Assembly (NCBI GenBank): GCA_035276365.1
Contig: DATELS010000330.1
Location: forward strand, 1 to 53,310
Length of the DNA stretch: 53,310 nt
Direction: 5' to 3'
DNA from: Thermoanaerobaculia bacterium
GTDB lineage: Bacteria; Acidobacteriota; Thermoanaerobaculia; Gp7-AA8
A program made the translations under genes and the position numbers. Positions 727-28,020 of the stretch are shown here, in pieces. How positions within the stretch are numbered: position 1 is the stretch's first letter; each line of letters opens with the position of its first letter. The notes under the pieces were generated by a model. That model was given only the letters and a program-made list of their open reading frames with translations, was not told the DNA's origin and ran no database searches.

Positions 727-769
727 ATGGACCTCCGAAAACGCGGTGAGCGGAGCGGCGAACGCAGCG

Positions 770-1084
770 TCAGCCGCGTTCGTCGGGCGGGATATCGACG
801 GCAGTGACCGCACTGAGCGGATTTCCGGCGGACGCCGTGGGCAGGACGGTAGCCTGCATAAGAGGCGTGTGGGGCGCTGTCGATTCGATCAACGCAGTGC
901 CCGAACAGATACAGGCGTGGCAGTCGAGCGAACCTGCATCATCGGAGCAGACATCGTTCGCCGTCATCGTCGATCCGGTTGCGCGAACTGCGACAACGAT
1001 GTCATCACAGCACCAGCTGGCGTCGATCGCGAGTAGCGCGATCAACACGAGCACTGCGCTCCGAAACATCGCTTTCGACCTCAT
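770..1084 (-). CDS. Small membrane-anchored Cys-rich protein (104 aa), distant relative of the CFCCCSH proteins at 18695 and 21541
   Basis: The internal ATG at 1084 overlaps the lspA stop (ATGA). Sequence is MRSKAMFRSAVLVLIALLAIDASWCCDD...LDCHACICSG...DIPPDERG, i.e. one TM helix followed by Cys clusters. It sits directly upstream of an outer-membrane factor gene, like its relatives. Confidence 0.5.
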   Translation of the reverse strand: MRSKAMFRSAVLVLIALLAIDASWCCDDIVVAVRATGSTMTANDVCSDDAGSLDCHACICSGTALIESTAPHTPLMQATVLPTASAGNPLSAVTAVDIPPDERG

Positions 1085-1575
1085 GTCCGCGCCTCGCTGG
1101 TCGCAGTGCGTCTGCTCGCGAGAAGGAGCGTGCCGATTCCGATACAGATCGCGACGTCGGCGAGATTGAACGCCGGCCAGTGATGCGCACCATTGGCCGT
1201 CCGCACGTAGAAGTCGAGAAAGTCCACCACCGGTCCGAGCGTCACCCGGTTCACGATGTTGCCGAGCGCTCCGCCGAGGACGAGATGCAATCCGACCTGC
1301 ATCCATCGGTCCGTAAGAGGAGTTCGCAGTGCGGTCAAGAACACGACGGCTGCAATGATCGCTGATGCGCCCGTGAGAAGCCATGGAAGGGCTCGCCCGA
1401 GATCAGCGCCGAGCCCGAATACGGCACCGGGGTTCCGCACATGCACGAGGTTGAACCAGCCGTCCACGACGGTGCGAACACTGCCGACGGGCAGCCATTC
1501 TCGGATGACCGCCTTCGTCGCCAGGCCGGCCGCCGCGACACCGAGCGCAATGAGAAGCAGCGTCAGGCGCGTCAT
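1081..1575 (-). CDS. lspA: Lipoprotein signal peptidase (signal peptidase II)
   Basis: MTRLTLLLIALGVAAAG...FNLVHVRNPGAVFGLG...LGGALGNIVNRV..VVDFLDF....WPAFNLADVAICIG contains the conserved LspA motifs. The start at 1575 overlaps the lgt stop by 4 nt. Confidence 0.9.
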   Translation of the reverse strand: MTRLTLLLIALGVAAAGLATKAVIREWLPVGSVRTVVDGWFNLVHVRNPGAVFGLGADLGRALPWLLTGASAIIAAVVFLTALRTPLTDRWMQVGLHLVLGGALGNIVNRVTLGPVVDFLDFYVRTANGAHHWPAFNLADVAICIGIGTLLLASRRTATSEART

Positions 1576-2375
1576 GTCGCTTCTCCTTGGATAGGAGGCG
1601 AGACTCGTCGCACCTGCAACCACGTGCCGATAGCGATCAAGATGACACTGATCAGTTGTGCGATGGTGAACGGCCCGAGGAAGCGATCATCCTTGACGCG
1701 TACGAACTCGACGAGAAATCGCTCCACACCGAGCAGGATCAGGAACATACCGAACTGAGATCCGCGCGCGGGCGCACGTCGCTGACGCCACATCAGGATG
1801 GCGAAGATCGCGAGACCCGCAGCGACTTCGTAAAGCTGCGTTGGATGAACGCGAAGCAGCGTTTCCGGTGCCAATGAAGGATCGACATGCGCCCCCGCCG
1901 CCCGCAGTGCTTCGGCGGTCGTCGGTGGACTTCCTTTCGGGAAGGCGACGCCGACGATGCTCGACGTCGGGCGGCCGTAGTCATCGCCCACGAAGAAGCA
2001 CGCCAGCCTTCCGACGCCATAGCCGATGGCCAGCGCAGGTGCGGCCGCATCCGCCACGGTAAGGTAGGGCAGCCTCCGCCGCCTCACCACGATCGTGCAG
2101 GCGATCCAGCCGCCGATCAGACCTCCGTACCAGACCAGCCCCGCGCGCGAGAACAGCGCTGAGAGATCGCGAAACAGGATCGCGTAGTAGATCTTCGCTC
2201 CGACGATCCCGCCGATCGCGGCCCATACCGTCAGCGTCGAGCCGAGCTCCGGATCGATTTCGGATCGGCGGAGACTCTTCGACAGCACCACCGACGCGAC
2301 CAGGAACGCGAGGAACATGAACAGACCGAAGGTCGTGATCTCGAAGTCGCCGATGCGGATGAGCGTGGGATACAT
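1572..2375 (-). CDS. lgt: Prolipoprotein diacylglyceryl transferase
   Basis: 267 aa, multi-TM. Contains MYPTLIRIGDFEITTFGLFMFLAF, LVWYGGLIGG, GRLACFFVGDDYGRPT and HPTQLYE, which are typical Lgt blocks. Confidence 0.9.
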   Translation of the reverse strand: MYPTLIRIGDFEITTFGLFMFLAFLVASVVLSKSLRRSEIDPELGSTLTVWAAIGGIVGAKIYYAILFRDLSALFSRAGLVWYGGLIGGWIACTIVVRRRRLPYLTVADAAAPALAIGYGVGRLACFFVGDDYGRPTSSIVGVAFPKGSPPTTAEALRAAGAHVDPSLAPETLLRVHPTQLYEVAAGLAIFAILMWRQRRAPARGSQFGMFLILLGVERFLVEFVRVKDDRFLGPFTIAQLISVILIAIGTWLQVRRVSPPIQGEAT

Positions 2376-6279: not shown

Positions 6280-8387
6280 GACCTCAGCATCCGCAGTCCG
6301 CTGGCGATGACGATGAACTCGCTGAACTCGTGGCCGAGGACAGCCATCGGCAGCGTGAACTTGCCGAGCACGGCACCGGTGACGAAGACGAGAATGACGG
6401 CGATCGACAGCGCGAGGTTCTGCCGCACCACCGATTGATTTCGCTTGGCCAGCTTGATGGCGTAGACGAGCTTCTCGAGATCGTCGGCCATCAGCGCAAC
6501 GTCCGCAGTCTCCAGCGCCACGTCCGTCCCTGCGGCTCCCATGGCGATGCCGACAGTCGCTTCGGCGAGCGCGGGCGCGTCGTTCACGCCGTCGCCCACC
6601 ATGGCCACGTGTCCGTGCTCTTTCGAGAGCTCGCGCACCTTCACCGCTTTGTCTTCCGGCTTGAGGTTCGCGAAGATCCGGTCGATCCCGACCTCGGAGG
6701 CGATCGCTCGTGCCGTCGTTTCGTTGTCGCCGGTGAGCATGGCCACCTGCGTCACGCCGACTGCGTGCAGAGCGGCGATGGCCGCGCGTGCGTTCGGCCG
6801 GATGTTGTCGCGGATGGCGATCGCCGCCCATGCTTCGGTGGGGCTGCCGACGATCACCACGGTGTTCCCGCCGGCGCGCAGTCGCTCGATCTCGCCGCGC
6901 AATGCGTCGAGGCCGACGCGCAACTCGCCTTCGAAGAGCTCCGGACTTCCGATGTACACGTCGTCGTTGCCAATCCGGCCCACTGCGCCCGCTCCGATGA
7001 GCGAGCGGAACTCGTCGAGCGGCTTCGGCTCAACACCCTTCGCCGTCGCATGCGCCACGATCGCGCGCGCCAGCGGATGCTGGCTGCGACTCTCCACTGC
7101 AGCCGCTCGCGCCAGAATCTCTTCAACGGAAATCGCCGTGGTGGCAGTGACGACCTGCGTCACCTCGGGTTCGCCCCGCGTGATGGTGCCGGTCTTGTCC
7201 AGCGCGACGACGCGCACCTTCGCCAGCTCCTCCAGATACACGCCGCCTTTCAGCAGCACGCCTTTGCGCGCTGCCGTGCCGAGGGATGCCACGAGAGTGA
7301 TCGGGATGGCGATCACCAGCGCACATGGCGACGCCGCGACGATGAATACCGTCGCGCGCGTGATCCATGTCCGCCAGTCCGCATCGAACAGCAGCGGCGG
7401 CACGATCGCGACGAGCACGCCGATCGCCAGCACCGCGGGGCTGTAGCGGCGACCGAAGCGCTCGATGAAACGCTCGCTCGTCCCTTTCCGCTCCTGCGCC
7501 TCCTCGACCATCTCGATGATCCGCGCGATGGTGTTGTTGGCGAACGTCTTCGTGGCCCGCACCTCGAGCGAGCCTTCTTCGTTGATGCTGCCCGCGAAGA
7601 CCGGATCTCCTGTCGTCTTCTCGACGGGAACGCTTTCGCCCGTGACCGGTGCCTGATTGACGCTCGAGCGCCCGCCGATCACCTCGCCGTCCGTCGCCAG
7701 CGCCTCGCCCGGACGGACGATGAAGATGTCGCCGACCTGCAGCTCCTCCACCGGGATCTCGACTTCGCGTCCGTCGCGTCGCACCGTGGCGCGCTTCGGC
7801 GTGAGGTCCATCAGCTTCCGGATCGCCGAGCGCGTCTTCTCTTCCGTATACCCCTCGGCCGCTTCCGAGATGGAGTAGAGGAAGGCCAGCATCGCCCCCT
7901 CCATTGCCTCGCCCATGATGATGGCCACCGTCGCGCCGACCGTCATCAGCATCTCGATGCTGATGCGCCGCTCGAAGAGCAGGTCTTCGACTGCCTCGCG
8001 CGCGAAGTAGTACGCGCCAATGACGGCGGAGACGATGTAGATCGCCAGCGTGACCGTTTCGCTCGCGCCGGCGCGGCCGATCAGCCATCCGGCGAGCAGG
8101 AGAACTCCCGATGCGACCGAGGTGATGACCTTCGGGTTCTTCCACGGCTTCGGCGTCTCAGCCATGCCGGGTCCCTCATGCACGGGGAAGCCGAGGTCGC
8201 GCAGCGACGTCTTGATCGCATCCGCGGAGACGCGCTTTTCGTCGAACCGCAGTGCGACCTTCGCCGCCTTCGGGTAGACCTGCAGGTCGGAGATGCCTTC
8301 GACGCGCTCGAGACCGCGCCGGATTGCGGCGGCGTCGCTGTCGCAGTCGAGATGGGCTACGCGGAGCTGAAGTTCCTGATTCGGCAT
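6276..8387 (-). CDS. Heavy-metal P1B-type ATPase with SPC transmembrane motif
   Basis: Start at MPNQELQL. HMA-like N-domain (LRVAHLDCDSDAAAIRRGLERVEGI). Also TGESVPV, SPCALVIAIP, DKTGTIT, GDGVNDAPAL, and HEFSEFIVIASGLRML in the last TM. Confidence 0.9.
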   Translation of the reverse strand: MPNQELQLRVAHLDCDSDAAAIRRGLERVEGISDLQVYPKAAKVALRFDEKRVSADAIKTSLRDLGFPVHEGPGMAETPKPWKNPKVITSVASGVLLLAGWLIGRAGASETVTLAIYIVSAVIGAYYFAREAVEDLLFERRISIEMLMTVGATVAIIMGEAMEGAMLAFLYSISEAAEGYTEEKTRSAIRKLMDLTPKRATVRRDGREVEIPVEELQVGDIFIVRPGEALATDGEVIGGRSSVNQAPVTGESVPVEKTTGDPVFAGSINEEGSLEVRATKTFANNTIARIIEMVEEAQERKGTSERFIERFGRRYSPAVLAIGVLVAIVPPLLFDADWRTWITRATVFIVAASPCALVIAIPITLVASLGTAARKGVLLKGGVYLEELAKVRVVALDKTGTITRGEPEVTQVVTATTAISVEEILARAAAVESRSQHPLARAIVAHATAKGVEPKPLDEFRSLIGAGAVGRIGNDDVYIGSPELFEGELRVGLDALRGEIERLRAGGNTVVIVGSPTEAWAAIAIRDNIRPNARAAIAALHAVGVTQVAMLTGDNETTARAIASEVGIDRIFANLKPEDKAVKVRELSKEHGHVAMVGDGVNDAPALAEATVGIAMGAAGTDVALETADVALMADDLEKLVYAIKLAKRNQSVVRQNLALSIAVILVFVTGAVLGKFTLPMAVLGHEFSEFIVIASGLRMLRS

Positions 8388-14008: not shown

Positions 14009-16432
14009 TCAGCTTCCGTGACACTTCTTGTACTTCTGGCCGCTGCCACAAGGGCACGGCGCATTCCTCCCGATCTTTCCCTCGGCTGCGACGCGCAGTC
14101 GGTAAGTAGCTTTGGCTAGCTCATCGATCCGGCCGCGGTCTGCGGGATCGATCGAGTCGGGTCGTACCCACTCGAAGGCAACCTCGACGAGCGAACCATG
14201 GGCGTCGAACATCAGCTCGAAGAGGAGCCGGCTCTCTTCGCTGGCGAGGGACGCCAGACCAAGCGTCATGTCATGCGCATAGTCGGAATTGCGCGCCACG
14301 ACGCCGTCTCGCCAGCAGAAGATCGTGACCGCAGTGTTTCCATAGACTGATGCCGGCGCCGGTGGTCCGCCGACGCGTTGTCGCTCGATGGCGTGGTCGA
14401 GCAGCATCGACAGCTGCTGTCTCGATGACGAATCGAGGTCGAGCAGCGCCGCCGCCGCGCTGGCCCGGCCGCGGGTTTGCTGCGTCGCGAGCCGATCGAG
14501 AACCTGCTGAAGAACGGGTGGCAATTTCTGACCGGGACGGGTGGCCGTACCGTCGAGCAGCATCGAGTGGTAGTACTGATCGATCGGCTCCTTGTATCCG
14601 CGCCACATCGTCGGTTCGCTGGAGCTGATCTTCAGCGCGGCCTGCAGGTAATCGTTGTGCGTGAAGTACAGCCCGAGATGATCCAACTCGTCGTCGATCC
14701 TGATCGCTGAAGTCTGTGCGACGGCGCGTCGGCGTTGCCGCAGATAGTGAACGAAGATCAGCGGGTTCGAAAACAAGTCGCGCATGACGCGCAGGTCATC
14801 GATGGAGACGGACCATCCCGGCATAGTGCCGACATCGACGCCCATCGGCTTCAGATGCTCCGCCTGCGCCGCAAGGTCGGTGAGCGCGTCCAGCGTCACG
14901 CCGCAAATTGTGACCACCTCAAATCGATCCCGGCGAAGGCGGGTGAGCTCGTGGTGTTCGCGGTCGAACATCGGCACCTCCTCCGCGCTGTTTAGATACT
15001 CGAGAAACCGTCGTCCTTGGCTGAGCGGCTTGTGGATGAGGCTCTTCGCAGAGGCAATGTGCGCGGGAAAGTCATTCGTCGGTGCCGTGTACGTGAAGGC
15101 ACCTGCTTTGACTTCGATGATGAAGAGATGTTCCTCCAGGTCGGCGACGACGACGCCGTCGCACTCGCACCAGTTCTTGGTGGATCTCTTCGTCGGCGGC
15201 CACTGGTAGTACGCAGGGGCGTATGCTTTTGCTCCGTTGACCAGACCGGAGATCAGCGATATCGCCACCGCTTCGGAGGCTTCTCGCTGCCGGTCTTCCC
15301 ACTGCTGTTTCAGATCGGGACGAAGCCTGAAAACTGCGCGCGAGATGATGCGGTACAGGTGATCGCGAACCGCGTAGACGTCGAAGCAGTAGAAACGGTC
15401 TCCGACATGAAGAAAAGGTCTGCGATGGATCGGCCACTCGCGCAGAGGCCATCCCTTCATCTCGTCACCGCTGAAGAACGAAGTCTCTTCGCCCGGTGCC
15501 CAGGCAAGTTCGCGTAGGAAAGCAGAGGGCAACTTCGTGATCTTCTGGAGGTCGAACAGGCCGAAGTGGTACAGCCGGTCGAAGACGTCATCGCGACGTT
15601 CAGTCCACCCGCGCTTCTCGACCGAATACTTTCCCAGTTCTTTCACGTCGGAGAACTCCACGCCCGCCGCGACGTCCTCCTCCATGGCTGCGAGGCAGTC
15701 TTTGTGGAACGCGACCAAATCGTCTTTCGCTTTGTTGATGCCGAGGGTGAGGCTGAATTCGATGTTCTCGACCGCGGAGATGATCTCTTCTGCCGAGACG
15801 CCGAATACCTCGCGCAGGATGCCGTCCTGCGGCGTCACGAAGTCGCGCAGTTGTTCGATGAGATGAACCGGATATCGATCGCCTCGGACGGTTGTCCAGT
15901 ACACCTGGGACTTGAAGTACAGCTCCTCGTGCTGTTCGTCGTAGGCAGGGTCGTTCAGCTTTCGCTCCGCCGTGCGTGCAGCCATGTATGGACCGTTCAC
16001 GAGCGTGAACAGCTCGTCTACATTCCTCTTCAGCCCTTCCCATACATCGTCGGCTAGCTTCGTTTGATCCGCCGCTGGAGGAACTGCCGCGATGACGCTC
16101 TGGACGTAATCGATCATCCGCATCGCCAGAACGTGGTCAGCACCGATCTCGCTCTCCGCCGTCACGGTGAGATGCTGGACGGCGAACATCCACCACGCTC
16201 GGAGAAGCAGTTCGTCTGGTTTGGTTGAACGGACGATCTCCGCGATCCGTGTCACGCGCGCGTCGATCTCGGCGGCTACGTTCGGGACCTGTTGGGCGAG
16301 GTGTTCGAGATGCTCGCGAAACTCCTCGGGCGTCATGAGGTTCCGGGCATAAGTCGTGCGGCCGAACCGCGCCAGCTCGAATGGACCCCACCGAAGTACG
16401 TCGTCGGGCAGCTTCTTTTTCTTGTGCTTCAT
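14009..16432 (-). CDS. Large (808 aa) SEC-C-motif protein with an internal PD-(D/E)xK/NERD-like nuclease core
   Basis: Start at MKHKKKKLPDD. Core is NWCECDGVVVADLEEHLFIIEVKAG (D...E-x-K). C-terminus is GRNAPCPCGSGQKYKKCHGS (SecA-type SEC-C zinc motif). The upstream 192 codons of the listed ORF are off-frame-like. Confidence 0.7.
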   Translation of the reverse strand: MKHKKKKLPDDVLRWGPFELARFGRTTYARNLMTPEEFREHLEHLAQQVPNVAAEIDARVTRIAEIVRSTKPDELLLRAWWMFAVQHLTVTAESEIGADHVLAMRMIDYVQSVIAAVPPAADQTKLADDVWEGLKRNVDELFTLVNGPYMAARTAERKLNDPAYDEQHEELYFKSQVYWTTVRGDRYPVHLIEQLRDFVTPQDGILREVFGVSAEEIISAVENIEFSLTLGINKAKDDLVAFHKDCLAAMEEDVAAGVEFSDVKELGKYSVEKRGWTERRDDVFDRLYHFGLFDLQKITKLPSAFLRELAWAPGEETSFFSGDEMKGWPLREWPIHRRPFLHVGDRFYCFDVYAVRDHLYRIISRAVFRLRPDLKQQWEDRQREASEAVAISLISGLVNGAKAYAPAYYQWPPTKRSTKNWCECDGVVVADLEEHLFIIEVKAGAFTYTAPTNDFPAHIASAKSLIHKPLSQGRRFLEYLNSAEEVPMFDREHHELTRLRRDRFEVVTICGVTLDALTDLAAQAEHLKPMGVDVGTMPGWSVSIDDLRVMRDLFSNPLIFVHYLRQRRRAVAQTSAIRIDDELDHLGLYFTHNDYLQAALKISSSEPTMWRGYKEPIDQYYHSMLLDGTATRPGQKLPPVLQQVLDRLATQQTRGRASAAAALLDLDSSSRQQLSMLLDHAIERQRVGGPPAPASVYGNTAVTIFCWRDGVVARNSDYAHDMTLGLASLASEESRLLFELMFDAHGSLVEVAFEWVRPDSIDPADRGRIDELAKATYRLRVAAEGKIGRNAPCPCGSGQKYKKCHGS

Positions 16433-16516
16433 CGCGCCGTGATGAACAGGTACGAGTGCTGATTTGGTTCCCTGTCTCCCGAGCCGTACGATCTGGCGTG
16501 ACCGTACCCCTGTGCG

Positions 16517-17005
16517 ATGATGCCGCACGTCGTGACGACCTCCGACATCCTCCTTCGCCTCACTGTCGCCACGCTCATCGGAGCGATCCTCGGTGTAGAC
16601 CGCGAGCTCCGCGCGAAGCCGGCCGGGCTGCGTACGCATGCCCTCGTGGCGCTCGGTGCGGCGCTGGTCACGCTGACCACGCTCGGCCTCGCAAACGGCG
16701 GCAGCGCGGATCCAGTGAGCCGCGCCATCCAAGGCATCATTGCGGGCGTCGGCTTTCTCGGTGCAGGCGCGATTCTGAAGGCGCGCGATCGCGACGAAGT
16801 GAGCGGTCTCACCACTGCCGCCTCCATCTGGCTCGTCGCCTCGCTCGGCATCGCCTGCGGCGCCGGTTACTGGCTCGCCGCGCTTGCCGCTCTCGTCCTC
16901 GCGTTGATCGTGCTCGTCCTCGGCGGTCCGGTGGAAGGATTGTTGCGCCGTCTCTTCGGTAGGGGCGAGCGGAACGAGCCGCCGCACGCACCGAACGAGC
17001 GGTGA
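16517..17005 (+). CDS. mgtC: MgtC/SapB-family membrane protein
   Basis: LLRLTVATLIGAILGVDRELRAKPAGLRTHALVALGAAL...GIIAGVGFLGAGAIL...GLTTAASIWLVASLGIACGAG are typical MgtC blocks. Confidence 0.85.
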   Translation: MMPHVVTTSDILLRLTVATLIGAILGVDRELRAKPAGLRTHALVALGAALVTLTTLGLANGGSADPVSRAIQGIIAGVGFLGAGAILKARDRDEVSGLTTAASIWLVASLGIACGAGYWLAALAALVLALIVLVLGGPVEGLLRRLFGRGERNEPPHAPNER

Positions 17006-17085
17006 CAATCGCGGCCGCAGTTACCCCATTCGACGACGTGAGGAGTATGATTTGTTCGTGCTGTCGTTACGAAAGGAGCGGCACG

Positions 17086-17551: not shown

Positions 17552-18454
17552 TCAGTCGCGGTGCGGCAGCGGTTTGGGCGGGCCGACGTCGAGCACGAAA
17601 TCGGCTCGGATGGGATCTCCTCCGGCCAGGAACTCAACCCATAGCTTGTACTTGCCGGTGTGCGGAAACTGCGCGTGGAAGATCACCTCGGGGCCGGTGT
17701 CTCCGATGTGCCGCCGGTGATCCTTGTCGAGCTCGTTCGGAAGGGCCGGTAGATGCGCACGTCCGCGCATTCCACTGAGTGCTTCGCCATCCGTGGAGTG
17801 CGGATAAGAGACGAAGTCCTCTCCGCCTTCGCGGATGATCACCATGTGGCCGGGCCTTCCCGTGGGCGTGAGGTTCGTAACGGGCGCGCCGTCGCGTGAG
17901 ATCTCGAAGATCAGCGAGCTCCAGATCGTGGCTTCGGGCGGTTCCGGCTTTGTGCGCAGGCGGACGGTGTACCTCCCACTGGCTTTCTCGCGCGGGGACG
18001 CGGAGAGCGATTCGGCAGAAGGCGATTGGGTCTCCCCGCCAGCAATCACGATTTGTTTTTCAACGCGCTGTGGACCATTCGGCGGCCGGATGATCGCGTA
18101 GAGAATGTATCGGCCTGCGACGGAAAACGTGATGCCGCTCGTCCAGATGTTGCCTTTCCTTTGCGGGTGAAGATGCTGGTACCATCGCAGATCGCTGCTG
18201 ACGGCGACCAGATGCACCGGGTGCCCGGCGATCGGCTCGAGACGCGGCGGATCGCTTCCGTGTCCGACTTGCACCCGAATGTTCGACCGTGTGCCGACGA
18301 CCGGGCGCTCCGGATCGACCGCGATCGTCATTGCGAAAGCATCGGGAGCGGGAGTGGCGGCGTCGGGCTTGATGTCGGGTAGCTCCGGCTCTGGGCGCTC
18401 GCAGGCGATCACGAAGATGGCGAACAAGAGGAGCGGAGCCGCTGCTCTCGTCAT
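17552..18454 (-). CDS. Lipoprotein with two tandem beta-sandwich-like His-rich repeats (putative periplasmic metal-binding protein)
   Basis: Lipobox FVIAC. Two similar halves each carry H-x-V...H-x-HP...F..FP/F-x-x-GxY patterns (HPVHLVAVSSDLRWYQHLHP...GRYILY and PGHMVIIREGGEDFVSYPHS...FPHTGKYKLWVEF). Confidence 0.55.
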   Translation of the reverse strand: MTRAAAPLLLFAIFVIACERPEPELPDIKPDAATPAPDAFAMTIAVDPERPVVGTRSNIRVQVGHGSDPPRLEPIAGHPVHLVAVSSDLRWYQHLHPQRKGNIWTSGITFSVAGRYILYAIIRPPNGPQRVEKQIVIAGGETQSPSAESLSASPREKASGRYTVRLRTKPEPPEATIWSSLIFEISRDGAPVTNLTPTGRPGHMVIIREGGEDFVSYPHSTDGEALSGMRGRAHLPALPNELDKDHRRHIGDTGPEVIFHAQFPHTGKYKLWVEFLAGGDPIRADFVLDVGPPKPLPHRD

Positions 18455-18509
18455 CGGACTGCTCCATCCCGTCATCTCCGTCAGATGCTGCGCTCGGTGA
18501 TGACCGAGG

Positions 18510-18665
18510 TCAAGGTGTCAGCTTCGCCACGAGAATCTTGTCGATGCGGCGGCCGTCCATGTTCACGATCTGGAAACGAAAACCCGCGACTTCGATTCTG
18601 TCCGCGACCTTCGGCATCCTTTCGCCGAGGTGACTGATGCTGCGTCCACGTTGCAGTCCGTCGAG
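18510..18665 (-). pseudogene. Remnant of the C-terminal CorC_HlyC (transporter-associated) domain of a CBS-domain CorC/TlyC-type protein
   Basis: In-frame translation is LDGLQRGRSISHLGERMPKVADRIEVAGFRFQIVNMDGRRIDKILVAKLTP*. This matches the ...lGr.P.vGd.ve..g..f.V..mdgrRI.kv.v signature. No CBS or DUF21 part lies upstream, and the frame runs antisense into the gene at 18695. Confidence 0.45.
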
Positions 18666-18694
18666 GGAGCCGGGAGTACAATTGCCATCCGCCC

Positions 18695-19063
18695 ATGGGT
18701 CATTCGTTCCGCAGCCGACGTGACACGGCGAGACGCCGCTGGCGCTCCATCGTGCGTGTCGTGGCGCTCGTCTTCCTGGTGATCACGGCGGTGGACTTGA
18801 CGAGTCCGCAGTTCTGCGGTGAAGAGACCGCGCCGCTATTCCGGGCGCTGCATGCCGGCGCGACTATCGATGTCGATGCGCATCCGCAGCCGCCGGTGAG
18901 CTCGCGCGAAGACTGTTTCTGCTGCTGCTCGCACGTGGTGCACGTCGGGCTGACCGCGCGCGTCTCGTCTCCTGCGATGTCGGGAGCCATCGTGCGCGCC
19001 GCTGCGTCACAGGTCCCGTTCACCACGCCACGCGCGCTCTTCCACCCTCCGCGCCTGGTCTGA
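18695..19063 (+). CDS. Small membrane-anchored Cys-rich protein with a REDCFCCCSH motif; paralogue of 21541..21903
   Basis: WRSIVRVVALVFLVITAVDLTSPQFCGEE...REDCFCCCSHVVHV...LFHPPRLV. The same motif order appears in the czc-linked copy. Confidence 0.6.
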   Translation: MGHSFRSRRDTARRRWRSIVRVVALVFLVITAVDLTSPQFCGEETAPLFRALHAGATIDVDAHPQPPVSSREDCFCCCSHVVHVGLTARVSSPAMSGAIVRAAASQVPFTTPRALFHPPRLV

Positions 19064-19123
19064 CTCATCGCTCGAAATCGATTCACGGTGACGCGCCCGC
19101 GATGTTCGGGAGCGCGAGGAGTT

Positions 19124-19492
19124 ATGCCTGCCAAGATTCTCGTCGTAGACGACGACGGTTCGATTCGCCGTTTGATTGGACACTTGCTCCAACGACATGG
19201 TCTGCAGTTCGAGTTCGCCGAGAACGGAGCGGAGGCTCTGGAGCTCGTCCGTCGAACGGTGTTCGAAGCCGTTCTGCTGGACCTGATGATGCCCACGATG
19301 AATGGGTTTGATTTTCTCGATGTCGTGCGTTTGGAAAAACCGGAGCTCCTCGCCAGGACCATCGTCGTGACTGCGTTCAGCCGTCAAGGTCATCCGCCCG
19401 CGGTGGATGGCGTGTTCGCCGTCATTCGAAAGCCGTTCGATATCGACAATCTGCTGGACGTCGTAGACCTATGCCTCGAGAGCAAACAATGA
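19124..19492 (+). CDS. Single-domain response-regulator receiver (CheY-like)
   Basis: MPAKILVVDDDGSIRRLI...AVLLDLMMPTMNGFDFL...VVTAF...VIRKPFD has the acidic pocket, the phospho-Asp and the conserved Lys. No output domain is present. Confidence 0.85.
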   Translation: MPAKILVVDDDGSIRRLIGHLLQRHGLQFEFAENGAEALELVRRTVFEAVLLDLMMPTMNGFDFLDVVRLEKPELLARTIVVTAFSRQGHPPAVDGVFAVIRKPFDIDNLLDVVDLCLESKQ

Positions 19493-19701
19493 ACGACTGG
19501 AAGACGCGCGCGGCAGTCATCGCCGGACGGATCGCCCTCGGCATGAGCATCGTTTCCTTACTGGGAGCCTGGATCATTCAGTGGACGCAGCGTCCGATCT
19601 TCTCCCTCGACCAGCAGCACCTCTTTCTCGATTCGCTGGCGTTGGCGGCGATCGGAACGGGACTGCTCGTGAATGCGTTGTTGGTCGCGATACGCAAGTG
19701 A
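19489..19701 (+). CDS. Small two-TM membrane protein
   Basis: The ATG overlaps the receiver stop (ATGA). Sequence is MNDWKTRAAVIAGRIALGMSIVSLLGAWII...LALAAIGTGLLVNALLVAI. Confidence 0.45.
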   Translation: MNDWKTRAAVIAGRIALGMSIVSLLGAWIIQWTQRPIFSLDQQHLFLDSLALAAIGTGLLVNALLVAIRK

Positions 19702-19994
19702 GCCGCTCCATGTTGAACCGCTCGTTCTCGACCCCATCTCCCTCGCCTCGACGGCCTCGGTGTGCTTGGCTTTCTGAGCCATCAGGCCGAGCTGCTACGG
19801 CGCACCACGGTCATCAGCGGTTTGCCCTTGTTCGTCACCGCGCTCTGCCCGGTGTGCGGAACGATCCCTAAGCCGGTGAGCGCTCCAGGGCTGATCGAGC
19901 TCGTCAAAAAAGCGTCGGAATGGATGCCGCCGGGTGAGCACGCCCTTCGCATTGGCGGAGCCCGGCACTCATTCTTGCGAGGGAGGCAGCAACC

Positions 19995-21461
19995 ATGACC
20001 GGCGGCCGGTGGGTGGCGGTTTTGCTGTTGATGTGTGCGGCAGTGGAAGGTGCGGCGGGGTCGCTCGTCCGGCGTGAGAACGCAAAGGCCGGGACGAGTG
20101 CATGGAGACTCGCCGACATCGCCCGGGAAGGGGAGATCGAGGGATACGGATCGAAAGTTTCGGTCGAGCGCGGTGAGTCCATCGCGTTCTACGTTTCGAC
20201 AACGGACAGCAGCTACAGGCTCGAGGTGTTCCGCATGGGATGGTACGGCGGGAGCGGCGCACGGCGCGTGCATGGACCTGTCGAGCGCGCCGGCATCCGC
20301 CAGCCCGTTCCGCAGCCCGAGCCTGTGACCGGCTTGATCGAATGTGATTGGGTCGATCCGTACGTACTCTCCACCGTCGCCGCGGCGGATCCGACGGAGT
20401 GGATGAGCGGCGTCTATATCGTGAAGCTGACTGCCTCGAACACGAGGAAGGAATCACTCATCCATTTCGTCGTTCGTGAAGACCGGCGGTCCTCGGATGT
20501 GCTGTTTCAATGCGCCGTCACGCGCTACCAGGCCTACAACAACTGGGGCGGGAAGTCGTTGTACGACTTCAACAGCAGCGGCAGCCAAGCGGCGCGCAAG
20601 GTGTCTTTCGATCGGCCCTATACATTCCGGTCCGGGCCCTTCGAATTCATCCTGTCGTGGGAGTACAACATGGTGCGGTTCCTCGAGCGCGAGGGATACG
20701 ACGTGACCTACGCGACCAGCGTCGAAACGCATGCGTCTCCAGACATGCTGCTCACCCGCCGCGCGTTTCTGTCGGTCGGCCACGACGAGTATTGGACGTG
20801 GCAGATGCGGCGCAACGTCGAAGCGGCCCGCGACGCGGGCGTGGATCTCGGTTTTTTCTCGGCCAATACCTGCTACTGGCAGATGCGCTTCGAGGCCAGC
20901 CCTCGTACCGGCGAACCGCACCGGGTGATCGTCTCGTACAAGGAACGAGCGCTGAGCGAAGACCCTCTGGCCCGCGATGGGAATCCGTCCAACGATCATC
21001 TCGTGACCGCGAAGTTTCGGGACGTTCCGGTGAATGCTCCGGAGGAGACGCTGATCGGCGTGATGTACACGGCCAGCCCGGTGGACGGCGACATCGTCGT
21101 GGAGAAAGCGGATCACTGGGTCTTTGCCGGCACCGGGCTGCGGGAGGGAGATCGCCTTCCCGGGCTTCTCGGGTACGAGGTCGATCGCATGCATGGCCAC
21201 GCTCCGCCCGGCACGGTGCGTCTTGCCCATTCCCCGTTCGTCGCCACCGATGACGGCGAGACGGGGTTTTCGGACATGACCATCTACAAAGCAGCGAGCG
21301 GTGCCTACGTTTTCGCCACCGGCAGCATTCAATGGAGCTGGGGCCTGGACGAGTTCCGCGGCGGTACGCGGGCGAGCAACGCGGCGCACCAGATCACCCG
21401 AAACGTGCTGAACCGCTTCATCTACGGCGACCCTCGACCGAAACGGCGAGCTGTACGCTGA
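19995..21461 (+). CDS. Secreted N,N-dimethylformamidase-large-subunit-like (DUF6605-type) protein
   Basis: Signal peptide present. Contains VTRYQAYNNWGGKSLYDF, SVGHDEYWTWQMRRNVEAARDAGVDLGFFSANTCYWQMRFE and GYEVD. The family call is from memory of these blocks. Confidence 0.6.
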   Translation: MTGGRWVAVLLLMCAAVEGAAGSLVRRENAKAGTSAWRLADIAREGEIEGYGSKVSVERGESIAFYVSTTDSSYRLEVFRMGWYGGSGARRVHGPVERAGIRQPVPQPEPVTGLIECDWVDPYVLSTVAAADPTEWMSGVYIVKLTASNTRKESLIHFVVREDRRSSDVLFQCAVTRYQAYNNWGGKSLYDFNSSGSQAARKVSFDRPYTFRSGPFEFILSWEYNMVRFLEREGYDVTYATSVETHASPDMLLTRRAFLSVGHDEYWTWQMRRNVEAARDAGVDLGFFSANTCYWQMRFEASPRTGEPHRVIVSYKERALSEDPLARDGNPSNDHLVTAKFRDVPVNAPEETLIGVMYTASPVDGDIVVEKADHWVFAGTGLREGDRLPGLLGYEVDRMHGHAPPGTVRLAHSPFVATDDGETGFSDMTIYKAASGAYVFATGSIQWSWGLDEFRGGTRASNAAHQITRNVLNRFIYGDPRPKRRAVR

Positions 21462-21540
21462 AACACTCCCCTGGAATAGCGCTGCGCCTTCGCCCGCTTA
21501 CGATGCGTGTCTCTGGAGTAGAATCCCGCCCGCAAACGCT

Positions 21541-21903
21541 ATGACGCGAGCAGTTGCAAGTCGAGGTCCCACACACTGGCGCACGATCGCCCGCGCGGCG
21601 GCTGTGCTTCTCCTGATGCTCGCTGCCGCGGACTTGGCGTTTCCGCAGATCTGCCGGGAGAATGCATCTCGACTCCCGGCCGCCCCAGTGGCCGCGTCGC
21701 TTCAGGCGCAGCAGGCCGAAGGCAGCGGGAGCGATGAGACGCAGCGCGAGGATTGCTTCTGCTGCTGCTCGCACATCGTATCCGCGGAGCCGCAGACGCT
21801 TCAGACCAGTCTCCCGGGTACGCAGGGAGCTCTTGCCGCTCGCAATCTCCGCGAGCCGGCAGTGCCCGTGCTCTCGTTGTTCCGCCCTCCTCGGCTCGCG
21901 TAG
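21541..21903 (+). CDS. Small membrane-anchored Cys-rich protein with a REDCFCCCSH motif; first gene of the czc-like operon
   Basis: WRTIARAAAVLLLMLAAADLAFPQICREN...REDCFCCCSHIVSA...LFRPPRLA. It lies 73 nt upstream of czcC. Confidence 0.6.
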   Translation: MTRAVASRGPTHWRTIARAAAVLLLMLAAADLAFPQICRENASRLPAAPVAASLQAQQAEGSGSDETQREDCFCCCSHIVSAEPQTLQTSLPGTQGALAARNLREPAVPVLSLFRPPRLA

Positions 21904-21976
21904 TTCCTTCCTGAGCCGCTTCGTCCCTCGTTCGGTTTTCTGCTGAACGATCCGACTCCAATTCCTGAGGTTTTCG

Positions 21977-23314
21977 ATGATTGATCGATTTTCCATCGCG
22001 CGAGCGTGCTTGCTCTCGTTCGCGATGAGTGCCGTGGCCGCTGTGCCGGTCGCGGCTCAAGAAACCACGTCTACTACGACACAAGCGACGGCCCCCGCAA
22101 CGGCTGGCGGCGTCGAGGATCTCGTGCGCCGCGCGCTCACCGCGAACCGTGAGCTTGCCGCCGCGAGAATCGAGATCGCCCGCGCCCGCGCCCGTCGTCA
22201 GCAGGCCACCCTGCTTCCGAATCCGGTGCTCGAGTTCGAGCAAACCGGCGGTGCGCTCGGCATCTCCAAAGGAGAACGCGAACGCCGCGCCGAGATCTCC
22301 GTCCCGATCGAGTACGGCGGCAAGCGCGGCCGGCGCATCGACGTGGCTGAAGCCGAGTTGCGCGCCACCGAGGCATTCGTCGCCGATCGTGAACGGCGTC
22401 TCGCCGCAGAAGTACGGCGGCTCTATGCCGAAGCGGTCGCCGCGAACCGCGAGCTGTCGTTCACGAACGAGCTCACGCAGATCGACGCCGAGATCGGCAA
22501 CGTCCTGCAGGTGCGCGTGCGCGAAGGGGATGCGCCGCCGCTGGAGGAGAGCCTCCTGCGTGTCGAGATCGACCGCCTTCGTTCCCGCCGGGCCATGCTC
22601 GAGGGACGCCGCCGAGCGGCCGAACTGCAACTGGCGACGGTGATCGGGCTTCCCGCGAACGAGCGCATCGCCCTGGCCGACGGCTACAGCGAGGGCGTCA
22701 CCGTGCAGACGGTCGAGGAAGCCACGCGCCTGGCCTTACAGAACCGTCCCGATCTTCGTGCGGCCGAGCTGAACATCGCCGCCGCGGAAGCGGGCTTACG
22801 GCTCGCGAACGCCCAGGCACTGCCGGACATCAGCGTCTTCGCGGGCTACGCGAATGGCCGCAGCGGCTTCGATGACACGCCCGTCGGGCCGTTGGTCGAT
22901 CAGGACAAGCTGATCAACGCCGGTGTCGGCATCTCGATCCCGATCTTCAACCGCAATCAGGGAGCGAAGGCCGAAGCTGCCGCCGCGATCGAGCAGGCCA
23001 GACGCCTGCGCGAGCTGACGGAGCTGCAGATCCGCGCCGAGGTCGAGAGCGCGGTGGCCCGCTATCGCGCCGCCGACGCCGCCGTCGAGGTGTTCCGTCA
23101 GGGTGTCCTGGAGCGTTCGGAACAGAACGTCCGCACGATGCGCGCCGCCTACGAGGCCGGTGCGTTCACGATCAGCGAGTTTCTCGCCGAACGCCGCCGC
23201 CTCGTCGATGCTCAGCGCGAGCTGACCGAGGCGCTCACCGAGCGTGCGGTTGCTCTCATCGACCTGCAGGCTGCCGTCGCCGAGCCTATCGAAATCAATG
23301 AGGAGCCGAAGTAA
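21977..23314 (+). CDS. czcC: Outer-membrane efflux factor, TolC/CzcC family
   Basis: Signal peptide and two OEP repeats. Contains LVRRALTANRELAAARIEIARARARRQQATLLPNP and NRNQGAKAEAAAAIEQA. Confidence 0.85.
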   Translation: MIDRFSIARACLLSFAMSAVAAVPVAAQETTSTTTQATAPATAGGVEDLVRRALTANRELAAARIEIARARARRQQATLLPNPVLEFEQTGGALGISKGERERRAEISVPIEYGGKRGRRIDVAEAELRATEAFVADRERRLAAEVRRLYAEAVAANRELSFTNELTQIDAEIGNVLQVRVREGDAPPLEESLLRVEIDRLRSRRAMLEGRRRAAELQLATVIGLPANERIALADGYSEGVTVQTVEEATRLALQNRPDLRAAELNIAAAEAGLRLANAQALPDISVFAGYANGRSGFDDTPVGPLVDQDKLINAGVGISIPIFNRNQGAKAEAAAAIEQARRLRELTELQIRAEVESAVARYRAADAAVEVFRQGVLERSEQNVRTMRAAYEAGAFTISEFLAERRRLVDAQRELTEALTERAVALIDLQAAVAEPIEINEEPK

Positions 23315-24566
23315 TGAAACGGATCAACAACGAAGAAACTCAGGATACGACCGGCTCGCTGCGCAAGCGGATCGTGGCGATGGTCGTGGTGCTGCTCGTC
23401 GCTCTGGCCGCGCTTGCGTGCGGCGGCGGGGAAGACAAAGCAGCCGAGAAACCCGCCGCGGGAGCTGAAGCCGCCGAGGGCGAGAAACACGAGGAAGGCG
23501 AGGCCGAGGGGCTGGTCGAGCTCACGCCGGAGGCGGCGGCCGCGGCCGGCATTCAGTACGCGCAGGTGACGCAGCGCACCGCGATCGCGCCGCTCAAGGC
23601 CACCGGGACGATCGAGGCGAATCAGCAGCGGATGCAGCAGGTCACGCCGCTGGTCTCCGGACGTGTGGAGCGCGTGACCGCCGTGGCAGGGGATCGTGTC
23701 GGCGCCGGAGCCGTCCTGGCCATCCTCTCCAGCCCGGAGATTGCCGAGTTGCACGGCAAGGAGCTCGAAGCGCAGGCGCGCGTCAGTCTGGCGCAGTCGA
23801 ATCTTCGCCGCCTGCGCAAACTGAGCGAGCTCGGTGCCGCCGCGGGGAAGGACCTCGCCGCGGCTGAGAGCGAGGCCGCAACAGCCCAAGCCGAAGTGGC
23901 GCACATCCGCGCCAGCCTCGCGTCCCTCGGCTCCGACGAGCGGGTGAAAGGACACAGCATCTCCAGCGTCGCGCTGCGCGCCCCGATCTCCGGCACGATC
24001 ACCGAGCGGATGGTCAATGCGGGAGCTGGCGTCCAGGCGGGCACACCGCTCTTCTCCATCGCCGATCTCTCCACGGTCTGGGTCATCGCCAATGTTCCGG
24101 AAGCGCAGATCAGCAACATGCGCATCGGAACGGCGGCTGAGGTCCGTTCGCCGGCACTGGGGCAATCGATTGCCCGCGGGCGCGTCACTTACATCGATCC
24201 GGTGCTGAACGAACAAACGCGCACCGCGCGCGTCCGCCTCGAAGTGATGAATCCGAATCAGCAGCTGCGCATCGGCACCTTCGTCGAGGTCAACTTCGAG
24301 GCCGGCGCCGTCGCGCAGAGCGAAACCGCGACGGAGCTGGTCGTTCCGGACGAGGCGATCCAGACCGTCGAAAACAAGACGATCGTCTTTGTTCCCGACG
24401 CCAAGCCAAATCATTTCCAGATGCGTGAGATCCAGGTTGGTGGTCAGGCCGACGGCGTGCGCAAGGTCGTCGCCGGTCTCACGGCCGGTGAGCGCGTCGT
24501 GACCAAGGGCAGCTTCGTCCTCAAGACCCAGATGCTCAAGGGCGAGATGGGGGAGCACGGTCACTA

Positions 24567-24567
<1 letters not shown>
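23314..24567 (+). CDS. czcB: RND efflux periplasmic adaptor (membrane-fusion protein), lipoprotein-type
   Basis: Lipobox LAALAC, His/Glu-rich linker, then HlyD-like blocks (VSGRVERVTAVAGDRVGAGAVLAILSSPE and LRAPISGTITERMVNAGAGV). The start overlaps the czcC stop. Confidence 0.85.
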
Positions 24568-27659
<3,092 letters not shown>

Positions 27660-27669
27660 GGAGATAGTC

Positions 27670-28020
27670 ATGAAGATGATTGCAGCGGTGATCCAACCAT
27701 TCATGCTCACAAGGCTCACTCGGGCGCTTGAAGAGATTGAGGATTTTCCCGGCATGACCGTGATCGATGTACAGGGGTTCGGCCGCGAGAAGGCCCATCA
27801 CGATCCGGGTTCGCGCCATTCGCGCATCGAGGACGTCGTCGATTTCGTGAAGAAGGTGCGCGTCGAGATCGTCGCGCACAACTTCATGGTCGATCAGATC
27901 GTGAAGACGATCGCGGAGACCGCGCACACCGGGAATCGAGGCGATGGAAAGATCTTCGTGCTCTCCGTGGAGCATGCGGTGAGGATCAAGACAGGGGAAG
28001 CAGGAGACGCGGCAATCTGA
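27670..28020 (+). CDS. P-II (GlnB/GlnK)-like signal-transduction-fold protein
   Basis: MKMIAAVIQPFMLTRLTRALEEIEDFPGMTVIDVQGFGREK...KVRVEIVAHNFMVDQIVKTIAETAHTGNRGDGKIFVLSVEHAVRIKTGE shows the P-II fold pattern. It lies 10 nt after czcA. Confidence 0.8.
   Translation: MKMIAAVIQPFMLTRLTRALEEIEDFPGMTVIDVQGFGREKAHHDPGSRHSRIEDVVDFVKKVRVEIVAHNFMVDQIVKTIAETAHTGNRGDGKIFVLSVEHAVRIKTGEAGDAAI

Follow-up and report, generated by a model that had tools for sequence, protein, structure and literature searches.

Candidate metal-sensing arrest leaders ahead of CzcCBA-type efflux genes in a Thermoanaerobaculia contig

Three small reading frames and their shared anatomy

Contig DATELS010000330.1 of the Thermoanaerobaculia bacterium assembly GCA_035276365.1, analysed here over its positions 1 to 53,310 (53,310 nt, G+C 64%) and called the window throughout, carries three small open reading frames (ORFs), which we call A, B and C. 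A lies directly before the gene of an outer-membrane factor (OMF) that opens a heavy-metal efflux operon of the resistance-nodulation-division (RND) type, C lies directly before a second, partial OMF gene, and B precedes the gene of a receiver-only response regulator. A sequence-only reading of the same DNA had described all three as copies of one small-protein family encoded immediately upstream of OMFs. This is right for A (OMF at 21977..23314) and for C (partial OMF at 1..726), while B stands before the response regulator instead. With moderate confidence we propose for A, B and C a role as metal-sensing arrest leaders that act in cis, in the manner of the known leaders CutF and CruR. The ORFs and the parts of them on which this proposal leans are as follows.

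21541..21903, plus strand: candidate leader ORF A, 120 aa, defined by translation, hydropathy and homologues
21748..21774, plus strand: Cys/His cluster codons E70-H78 of A, including C72-F-C-C75 (a CxxC); invariant alignment columns
21880..21891, plus strand: putative arrest tetrad F114-R115-P116-P117 of A; Pro-Pro invariant, with CCU bias
21886..21888, plus strand: first Pro codon of A, CCU, placed in the ribosomal P site by analogy with CruR
18695..19063, plus strand: candidate leader ORF B, 122 aa, paralogue of A
18908..18934, plus strand: Cys cluster codons of B
19040..19051, plus strand: FHPP codons of B, followed by RLV and the stop
770..1084, minus strand: candidate leader ORF C, 104 aa; separate family, same architecture
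905..925, minus strand: DCHACIC codons of C, which follow the membrane helix and DASWCCDD
788..793, minus strand: Pro-Pro codons of C (in DIPP), followed by DERG and the stop

Read from its N-terminus, A consists of a basic segment, a membrane helix (residues 16-34), the motif PQIC (C38), the cluster EDCFCCCSH (residues 70-78), a spacer of 38 residues, FRPP (residues 114-117) and RLA before the stop. The translations of A and B confirm every motif that had been listed for two ORFs of about 120 aa with one motif order: WR(T/S)I in a basic N-terminus, a single hydrophobic segment, DL-x-x-PQ-x-C, the block REDCFCCCSH(I/V)V and finally LF(R/H)PPRL(A/V)-stop. The third, divergent member had been given its motifs and its place before an OMF correctly, but its strand had gone unstated; the minus-strand translation contains IDASWCCDD, LDCHACICSG and DIPPDERG-stop, and a plus-strand reading of 770..1084 was dropped, this frame being full of stops. 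As a member of the same family C does not stand, since the CFCCCSH block is absent from it and homology between A/B and C is not demonstrable (hhalign E 0.0076, probability 5%, register consistent). What C shares is the architecture: a C-H-A-C as the counterpart of CxxC, four residues after the Pro-Pro, and a spacer that, counted from the sequence, is 38 residues long and equals the layout of the A/B family. A six-frame scan of the whole window found no further copy of this layout besides A, B and C.

The predicted topology agrees with the single membrane segment assigned earlier. In hydropathy plots A, B and C each have one N-terminal hydrophobic 19-residue window (mean Kyte-Doolittle value 1.9-2.2) preceded by 2-7 Lys/Arg, and no second hydrophobic segment; the N-terminal segment looks like a signal anchor. 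AlphaFold2, run on an alignment of 30 sequences, was confident only for a helix at residues 11-33, where the predicted local distance difference test (pLDDT) score is above 90, and pLDDT was 44-69 outside this helix, the Cys cluster and the spacer included. A profile search of the PDB returned no related solved structure (best E 0.7).

These features were then surveyed in 154-156 distinct ORFs of the A/B family, and the tetrad and tail in the first 84 of them. Invariant in the alignments are E/D-D-C-F-C-C-C, the His and P-P-R. From the last Cys of C-F-C-C to the xxPP there are 38 residues in 85 ORFs, 37 in 68 and 36 in one (n=154). The sequence of this 37-38-residue spacer is barely conserved, and the linker from the first Cys to the cluster is variable, with 27-64 residues. 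After the Pro-Pro, three residues remain in 72 of the 84 ORFs, two in 6, five in 5 and four in 1. The commonest tetrads are YHPP (41), FHPP (20), YRPP (8), FRPP (6) and DHPP (6); RAPP occurs in none of the 84, and C has DIPP. Since a fixed length is combined here with a free sequence and an invariant Pro-Pro next to the stop, the spacer is better understood as a molecular ruler than as a folded domain.

Codon choice and RNA pairing at the end of the ORFs

Synonymous codon usage was compared with a background taken from the long genes that follow the ORFs in their loci. In the Pro-Pro, the first Pro is CCU in 82% of 154 ORFs against 17% in the background, and at the other Pro positions of the same ORFs CCU makes up 22%. 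The codon before it is similarly restricted (His is CAC in 96%, background 63%; Arg is CGC in 95%, background 41%), and Phe at position PP+3 is UUC in 98%. A per-column G statistic peaks at the first Pro with 2.14 per observation and stays at background, 0.00-0.18, in the metal motif's Asp, Cys, Phe and His columns, which are just as invariant. The binomial p for the CCU excess is about 1e-71, a value that is uncorrected for relatedness and so overstates independence. Synonymous sites should be saturated between proteins that share about 30% identity, and the pattern thus points to selection beyond the amino acid exactly at the Pro-Pro site.

The same end of the ORF is the part that is predicted to pair with the next gene's ribosome-binding site. 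In the window the regions concerned, with their Shine-Dalgarno (SD) sequences, are these.

21904..21976, plus strand: A-to-OMF intergenic region, 73 nt; hairpin 21928..21950; SD GAGG at 21967..21970
19064..19123, plus strand: B-to-response-regulator intergenic region, 60 nt; SD GAGGAG at 19116..19121
727..769, minus strand: C-to-OMF intergenic region, 43 nt; SD GGAGG at 732..736

In partition-function folds of 118 loci, nearly all of the predicted pairing of the OMF initiation region (SD to AUG) falls on nt 0..+23, where 0 is the start of the first Pro codon, a span made up of the Pro-Pro, the Arg, two codons, the stop and a few further bases. The pairing probability per nucleotide is 0.11-0.19 within this span, 0.01-0.08 elsewhere in the ORF and about zero within the intergenic region, which folds on itself. 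The median intergenic length in the family is 168 nt. The simple idea of an anti-SD element of the kind CCUCC:GGAGG was rejected (-11.4 versus -10.05 kcal/mol, with 39% of control segments as good). Because CCUCC is complementary to any SD, we used a test of cognate against non-cognate pairs that leaves out the Pro-Pro codons. Here the tail at +6..+30 reached a mean of -14.2 kcal/mol with its cognate initiation region and -11.7 kcal/mol with non-cognate ones (p 6e-8), and a control segment of the ORF showed no such difference. When a 24-nt window was moved from -114 to +101 in 75 non-redundant loci, the sole clear cognate advantage was found at +6..+29 (-2.45 kcal/mol, p 3.4e-5), with a weaker shoulder at -6..+17 (p 0.013); the remaining 15 windows had none.

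Different tails fit different SD regions. In two loci (L031 and L091; such labels denote loci gathered in genome and metagenome scans and look-ups) CGCCUUUCUUAG is matched with CUAAGAAAGG, and in L106 the tail CGUCACUCCUAG pairs with AGGAGUGGCG. In the minimum free energy (MFE) fold of B, CACCCUCCGCGC, which holds the His-Pro-Pro-Arg codons, pairs with the response regulator's SD, GCGCGAGGAGU (-28.2 kcal/mol). The MFE fold of C joins CCGCCCGACGAACGCGG to CCGCGUUUUCGGAGG (-29.8 kcal/mol), so that the D-I-P-P codons meet the SD GGAGG, and when four C-type loci were folded together by RNAalifold, GAC-NUC-CC (Asp-Ile/Val-Pro) paired with GGAGGUC. No Rfam family was detected anywhere in the window, and a global alignment of all intergenic regions was too gappy for use. 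As a separate observation, the A-to-OMF intergenic region contains two copies of the octamer UUCCUGAG, at 21907..21914 behind the stop and at 21961..21968, where it overlaps the SD.

Family spread, neighbouring genes and upstream elements

The ORFs are conserved as proteins, as the earlier reading supposed. A has 80 homologues at E<=0.01, of about 100-140 aa, the named ones all annotated as 'hypothetical'. A search with a 30-member profile places the CFCCC family at 831 clusters (50% identity) at E<=1e-3, of which 364 are found at E<=1e-10. C has 28 homologues besides the protein of the window, and the invariants of its family are IDASWC, DCHACICSG and D(I/V)PPDKRG-stop. Spurious ORFs are ruled out by this strong protein-level conservation. 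Precursors of ribosomally synthesised and post-translationally modified peptides were also considered and ruled out: no modification enzymes lie nearby, and the association is with efflux genes.

Loci were collected by scanning one genome per species for the peptide EDCFCCC, which gave 103 confirmed loci, of which 80 were kept. A metagenome scan added 187 more loci, all distant relatives; close relatives came from an exact-protein look-up. All 80 kept genome loci derive from metagenome-assembled genomes (MAGs), the majority of them named as Acidobacteriota (Pyrinomonadaceae, Blastocatellia, Thermoanaerobaculia, Terriglobales and Chloracidobacterium). MAGs titled Heliomicrobium, Heliobacteriaceae, Clostridia and Bifidobacterium also carry the locus (L010, L036, L049, L052, L064, L067, L068, L074 and L076), and the organism names in these nine record titles may be wrong. 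A tblastn search of plasmids with A gave chance matches only (E 5-6).

The context was counted for 84 ORFs (the genome loci and the window), 81 of which have enough downstream sequence. The next gene is an OMF in 69 of these 81, followed by a membrane fusion protein (MFP, the periplasmic adaptor) and an RND pump where the contig continues; in 5 further cases the OMF comes after a gap or one extra ORF. Co-occurrence with RND operons, which the sequence-only reading had suggested as a check, is found. Other targets occur as well. L036 has a leader before a P-type ATPase; its two variant copies (1496..1852 and 6613..6975), one before the ATPase and one before an OMF, carry DDCFCCCHH and EDCFCCCQH and end in (D/E)RPPRFA. 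In L028 and L062 the leader is followed by a SurA-like or ankyrin protein and then a cation diffusion facilitator (CDF) transporter, in L065 by an adaptor-RND pair, and in L078 (leader end at 1633) by DsbB and a DsbA-like thioredoxin. The layout around B (leader B, response regulator or regulators, leader A, pump) recurs in L001, L161/L162 and L168. C-family loci (L171-L176) are syntenic in the order P-type ATPase, (CDF), an unknown protein of 450-461 aa, methyltransferase, GSDH/dockerin protein, Lgt, LspA, C, OMF, MFP and RND; in these clusters the lipoprotein-maturation genes Lgt and LspA stand directly before C and the OMF. In Terriglobales-type loci (L011 3312..3764, L021 6452..6910, L069 6430..6894) a protein of about 150 aa lies between leader and OMF; it has a conserved block, FYxRWSPxVxxFCRLFLGN, and no Pfam match.

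The neighbours of the three ORFs in the window are listed below.

21977..23314, plus strand: OMF, 445 aa (PF02321 OEP, E 1.8e-49; best NCBIfam match IhpA, a divalent metal exporter subunit)
23314..24567, plus strand: periplasmic adaptor of the CzcB/NccB type, 417 aa (TIGR00999, E 2.2e-59; HlyD_D23, E 5e-49)
24567..27659, plus strand: CusA/CzcA-family heavy-metal RND pump, 1030 aa (TIGR00914, 1364.9 bits against a cut-off of 701)
27670..28020, plus strand: P-II family protein, starting 10 nt behind the gene of the RND pump (PF00543, E 1e-25)
19124..19492, plus strand: receiver-only response regulator directly behind B (PF00072, E 2.6e-19; no output domain)
19995..21461, plus strand: DMFA2_C-family gene (N,N-dimethylformamidase beta-like C-terminal domain, E 4e-118)
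1..726, minus strand: second OMF gene, partial, running off the window; probable UUG start at 724..726, from the frame translation
1081..1084, minus strand: overlap of the C start codon with the stop of lspA (signal peptidase II)

With an RND pump, a CzcB-type adaptor and an OEP-family OMF in one operon, 21977..27659 is of the CzcCBA type. The pump contains the motif DFGLIVDGAVVMVEN in its fourth transmembrane segment, which we take to be the divalent-cation (CzcA-type) signature of the Nies classification. A P-II gene stands behind the RND pump in L002 too. Behind B, the response regulator is followed by a small membrane ORF and then by the DMFA2_C-family gene, and the distance from B to the OMF is 2.9 kb. 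In L161, L166 and L168 a second receiver-only response regulator takes the place of the DMFA2_C gene, which looks like a replacement or an insertion in this genome. At the position matching 1..726, the homologous loci L171 and L173 have OEP, MFP and RND genes. Elsewhere in the window, an ORF of 999 aa (14009..17008, minus strand) has a SEC-C metal-binding motif at residues 981-998 as its sole Pfam match.

Upstream of the leaders, A and B and their relatives share the promoter-like element GAGTA(G/C)AAT, 16-24 nt before the ATG. In the window it reads GAGTAGAAT before A (21516..21524, plus strand) and GAGTACAAT before B (18674..18682, plus strand); it is conserved in L001, L161 and L168, and L003 has it as GAGTAAGAT. 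Neither A nor B has a nearby SD of its own. This suggests that the element is a -10 element and that the mRNAs of A and B are near-leaderless. A sigma-70 scan of 18300..22100 by a strict two-hexamer rule found no promoter; Pyrinomonadaceae loci have TTGAC(G/C), a gap of 17-18 nt and TACAA(G/C) just upstream of the leaders. A terminator scan over the same interval returned two terminator-like sites, both within genes, and no intrinsic terminator between leader and pump.

Weighing of the readings and comparison with known systems

The arrest-leader reading would work as follows. The N-terminal hydrophobic segment would take the nascent chain to the membrane translocon. Once the ribosome had come to the invariant Pro-Pro, with three to four codons left until the stop, the Cys/His cluster would be exactly 37-38 residues behind, either in the translocon or where the tunnel ends. 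There the cluster, perhaps joined by the conserved Cys that closely follows the helix, could bind a thiophilic or divalent metal, and the binding would lengthen the Pro-Pro pause. The paused ribosome would cover the last 25 or so nucleotides of the ORF, which otherwise would pair with the SD/start region of the next gene, so that translation of this gene would be switched on: the OMF of the CzcCBA-type pump in the case of A and C, and the receiver-only response regulator in the case of B. We chose the sign of the metal effect, a prolonged pause, on the ground that a substrate should induce its efflux pump, as with CutF.

Several points weigh against this reading. For A, B and C we infer the arrest, the binding of metal and the identity of the metal. 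Pro-Pro alone is normally a weak pause that is relieved by elongation factor P (EF-P), and the tetrad of the family is (F/Y)(H/R)PP and not RAPP. The pairing of A itself is weaker, CCUC(GG):(CU)GAGG with only 4-6 bp; it closes a multiloop containing the hairpin 21928..21950, whose position, judged by eye, is kept with differing sequences in L001, L002, L003, L025, L108, L165 and L168. The local fold of A (z -1.9) is not clearly better than shuffles, and that of the B region has z +0.96. Masking the segment that a ribosome would cover raises the accessibility of the initiation region from 0.37 to 0.43, which is a small gain. Classical covariation or compensatory changes are not seen, since the paired columns are invariant within close relatives. 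The CCU preference could come from a tRNA effect instead of RNA pairing. C is an internal leader within a long metal-resistance cluster and not the first gene of its operon. With a spacer of 37-38 residues, the place of the Cys cluster is inside the translocon or where the tunnel ends, and not clearly in the periplasm. Finally, the models of related leaders are reached by none of the ORFs: for PF11162 (DUF2946), with a gathering score of 23.7 bits, A scores 16.1 (E 0.02) and B 19.2 (E 0.002); for CopL_fam (NF033807), with a cut-off of 40 bits, A scores 22.5 bits (E 1.4e-4); and hhalign of A/B to the CzcI alignment gives a probability of 8.5%.

The explanation that survives best next to the arrest leaders, although we regard it as unlikely, is that the ORFs encode stable, membrane-anchored periplasmic metal-binding proteins that act in trans as sensor, chaperone or gatekeeper of a CzcCBA-type pump. 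This is what the sequence-only reading had favoured. A conserved Cys4-His cluster next to a membrane anchor would suit such a protein, as would the place before czcC-like genes, which is that of CzcI on pMOL30; CzcI, which shares D-x-D-C-x-x-C-H and a spacer of about 35-37 residues, has been proposed to be a metal-sensing regulator (PMC9973294). However, a spacer fixed in length and not in sequence, an invariant Pro-Pro at an invariant distance from the stop, synonymous constraint only at the Pro-Pro site, complementarity of the 3' end of the ORF to the cognate SD, and the lack of an AlphaFold2 fold beyond the helix all disfavour it. The targets are moreover unrelated and offer no common partner (response regulator, P-type ATPase, CDF operons, DsbB). 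Of the earlier proposal, a link to metal sensing and to CzcCBA pumps is well supported by the context (OMF-MFP-RND in 69 of 81 loci, CDF or P-type ATPase elsewhere), whereas the stable periplasmic site, and with it the chaperone or gatekeeper role, is disfavoured. A protein acting in trans is compatible with a leader function, and both could coexist.

A transcriptional variant modelled on CruR, in which the Pro-Pro pause shields the transcript from Rho, metal alters the pause and premature termination controls read-through, seems to us improbable. Most of the family has long intergenic regions (the median of 168 nt is close to the 162 nt of cruR-bfrG), the intergenic region behind A is rich in C (36%) and poor in G (19%), and no intrinsic terminator separates leader from pump, as such a mechanism would have it. 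But the C/G ratio of the intergenic regions is only 1.14 family-wide, the long ones are predicted to be self-folded, which disfavours Rho loading, and those of the window are short (43-73 nt); complementarity to the SD/start is predicted by the translational model and not by the Rho model. Simple translational coupling without sensing, with constitutive translation of the leader opening the SD and the Cys cluster and Pro-Pro serving another purpose or none, would need just a translating or terminating ribosome to account for the tail:SD complementarity, and C itself is start-stop coupled to lspA, but we hold it to be very improbable, as it leaves unexplained the invariant Cys4-His, the exact 37-38 ruler, the invariant Pro-Pro, the membrane targeting and the exclusive association with metal-efflux and thiol-redox genes.

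Beyond the arrest leaders of this window, a wider picture can be put forward only tentatively: the family may be a phylum-wide set of acidobacterial nascent-chain metal sensors in which the arrest-site and last codons form the anti-SD strand, so that a ribosome on the Pro-Pro site would gate initiation of the next gene directly, across a self-folding intergenic region of up to about 200 nt, a module reused before RND, CDF, P-type ATPase, DsbB/DsbA and response regulator genes. In this picture copy B would be a translational-arrest sensor that feeds a phosphorelay, in place of or in addition to the usual histidine-kinase metal sensor, and its sensing would concern divalent (Zn/Cd/Co) and not copper stress.

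The stalling-leader principle and its association with RND outer-membrane factors are already published. New are the size and phylum of the family, its motif, tetrad and ruler, the codon and RNA signals, and the version before a receiver-only response regulator. Metal-sensing arrest leaders (CutF, CruR) have so far been studied in two proteobacteria and for copper only; if our reading is true, the principle would extend to CzcA-type pumps for divalent metals and to the Acidobacteriota, a phylum that is dominant in soil and poorly characterised, and about 830 clusters of 'hypothetical proteins' would gain a name and a testable function. The difference between 37-38 and 45 residues is a natural experiment on the ruler from sensing motif to arrest site, and reporters can put two concrete predictions to the test, the CCU codon in the P site and the complementarity of tail and SD. 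For annotation, such ORFs should be called leader peptides, and neither ignored nor labelled as structural pump subunits.

Searches with profile hidden Markov models gave no strict membership in a described family. Besides the subthreshold scores of A and B given above, C has no match to PF11162 in a Pfam search, and A, B and C have none to the CzcI models (NF045614/NF045615) at E<=0.1-1, for which CzcI itself scores 172.5 bits. The resemblance to DUF2946 is real, since 14 of 37 family members match PF11162 end to end, but all of these matches are subthreshold (best E 1.7e-4); 8 of the 37 match CopL_fam (best E 1.9e-5) and 3 match LpqS. The likeness to CzcI/DUF2946-type proteins noted in the earlier reading is in this sense partly upheld, with subthreshold matches for DUF2946 and none for the CzcI models. 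Strict membership in DUF2946, CopL or CzcI fails: the model scores are too low, RAPP is absent and the spacing is not 45 residues. The statement that the ORFs are not assignable to a described family is right as far as no curated model is passed, but in size, Cys/His motif, terminal PP and distance to the next gene they fit a published operational definition, and their N-terminal segment looks like a signal anchor. Ozturk et al. 2023 described 5,334 'CutF-like' proteins in 29 clusters; to be counted, a protein had to be shorter than 150 aa and to have a signal peptide, a Cys/His motif and a PP among its 15 C-terminal residues (PMC9973294). A, B and C have 104-122 aa, PP 3-4 residues from the end and intergenic regions of 73, 60 and 43 nt. 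The commonest downstream neighbour of CutF-like genes is an RND outer-membrane factor of PF02321 (PMC9973294), and CopL, SilD, CusD and CzcI belong to the CutF-like network, whose members are mostly Pseudomonadota and Bacteroidota; in the survey text and the supplements consulted, Acidobacteriota are unmentioned (PMC9973294).

CopL of Xanthomonas/Stenotrophomonas is a Cys/His-rich small protein encoded upstream of copA, and induction by copper needs it in cis (cited in PMC9973294). Its likeness to the ORFs is a weak match that reaches the C-terminal PP; it differs by having a multicopper oxidase downstream, and by another motif and phylum.

CzcI of Cupriavidus metallidurans was taken, like SilD, from pMOL30, and precomputed Pfam matches to PF28244 were available on some CzcI homologues. 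It is likewise a small exported protein directly before czcC of czcCBA, with D-x-D-C-x-x-C-H, a spacer of about 35-37 residues and a Pro-containing C-terminal block. It differs by a cleavable-looking signal peptide and a His-rich HLGHHEH block, both absent from A, B and C, and by PP 9 residues from the end, where CH34 CzcI has AP. The hhalign registers to the CzcI alignment are consistent, with a probability of 20% for C; homology of A/B and C to CzcI is unproven, and CzcI itself matches DUF2946 below threshold (E 0.026). As a side observation, the motifs of the CzcI family are D-x-D-C-G-x-C-H and PPDRPQWxxLA, and most homologues have PPDRPQW where CH34 CzcI (pMOL30, L169 15177..15521) has APDRPQW; to judge by these sequences, the Pro motif that a published remark denies to CzcI may be missing only from the protein of CH34.

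CruR (Bp2923) of Bordetella pertussis, a DUF2946 protein, is encoded by an upstream ORF and has an export signal, a CxxC and a RAPP 3 residues before its end (PMC9426467). Its CxxC-RAPP spacing is 45 residues, constant within 1-2, and it controls the downstream TonB-dependent transporter via arrest and Rho (PMC9426467); toeprinting has shown the arrest in vitro and finds the P site occupied by the first Pro codon (PMC12992588). The ORFs studied here resemble CruR in the export signal, the CxxC, a strictly conserved distance between the motifs and the position as leader of a metal-homeostasis operon. They differ in having no RAPP and a spacing of 37-38 instead of 45 residues. CruR serves an importer through Rho-dependent termination, and copper relieves its arrest, whereas here an exporter follows and the evidence points to unmasking of the SD.

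CutF of Rhodobacter capsulatus belongs to the family of CruR; its stall at a C-terminal Pro motif, which copper prolongs, opens the stem-loop that hides the cutO SD, and CutF acts only in cis and is undetectable as a protein (PMC9973294; bioRxiv 10.1101/2025.02.05.636593). Like CutF, the ORFs would encode small exported proteins with a Cys metal motif and a C-terminal PP, directly before a metal-homeostasis gene. The next SD may here too be shielded by an RNA structure that a stalled ribosome opens, as the family-level complementarity and the MFE folds of B and C suggest more than the pairing of A does. CutF has CxxxC, PPP and a spacer of 45 residues, where CFCCCSH, (F/Y)(H/R)PP and 37-38 residues are found in the present family. 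The N-terminus is here like a signal anchor and not obviously a cleaved signal peptide, and the part of the anti-SD strand appears to be played by the codons of the arrest site and the ORF tail themselves. CutF precedes a copper enzyme, and in its place the candidate leaders of these Acidobacteriota have a CzcA-type divalent pump.

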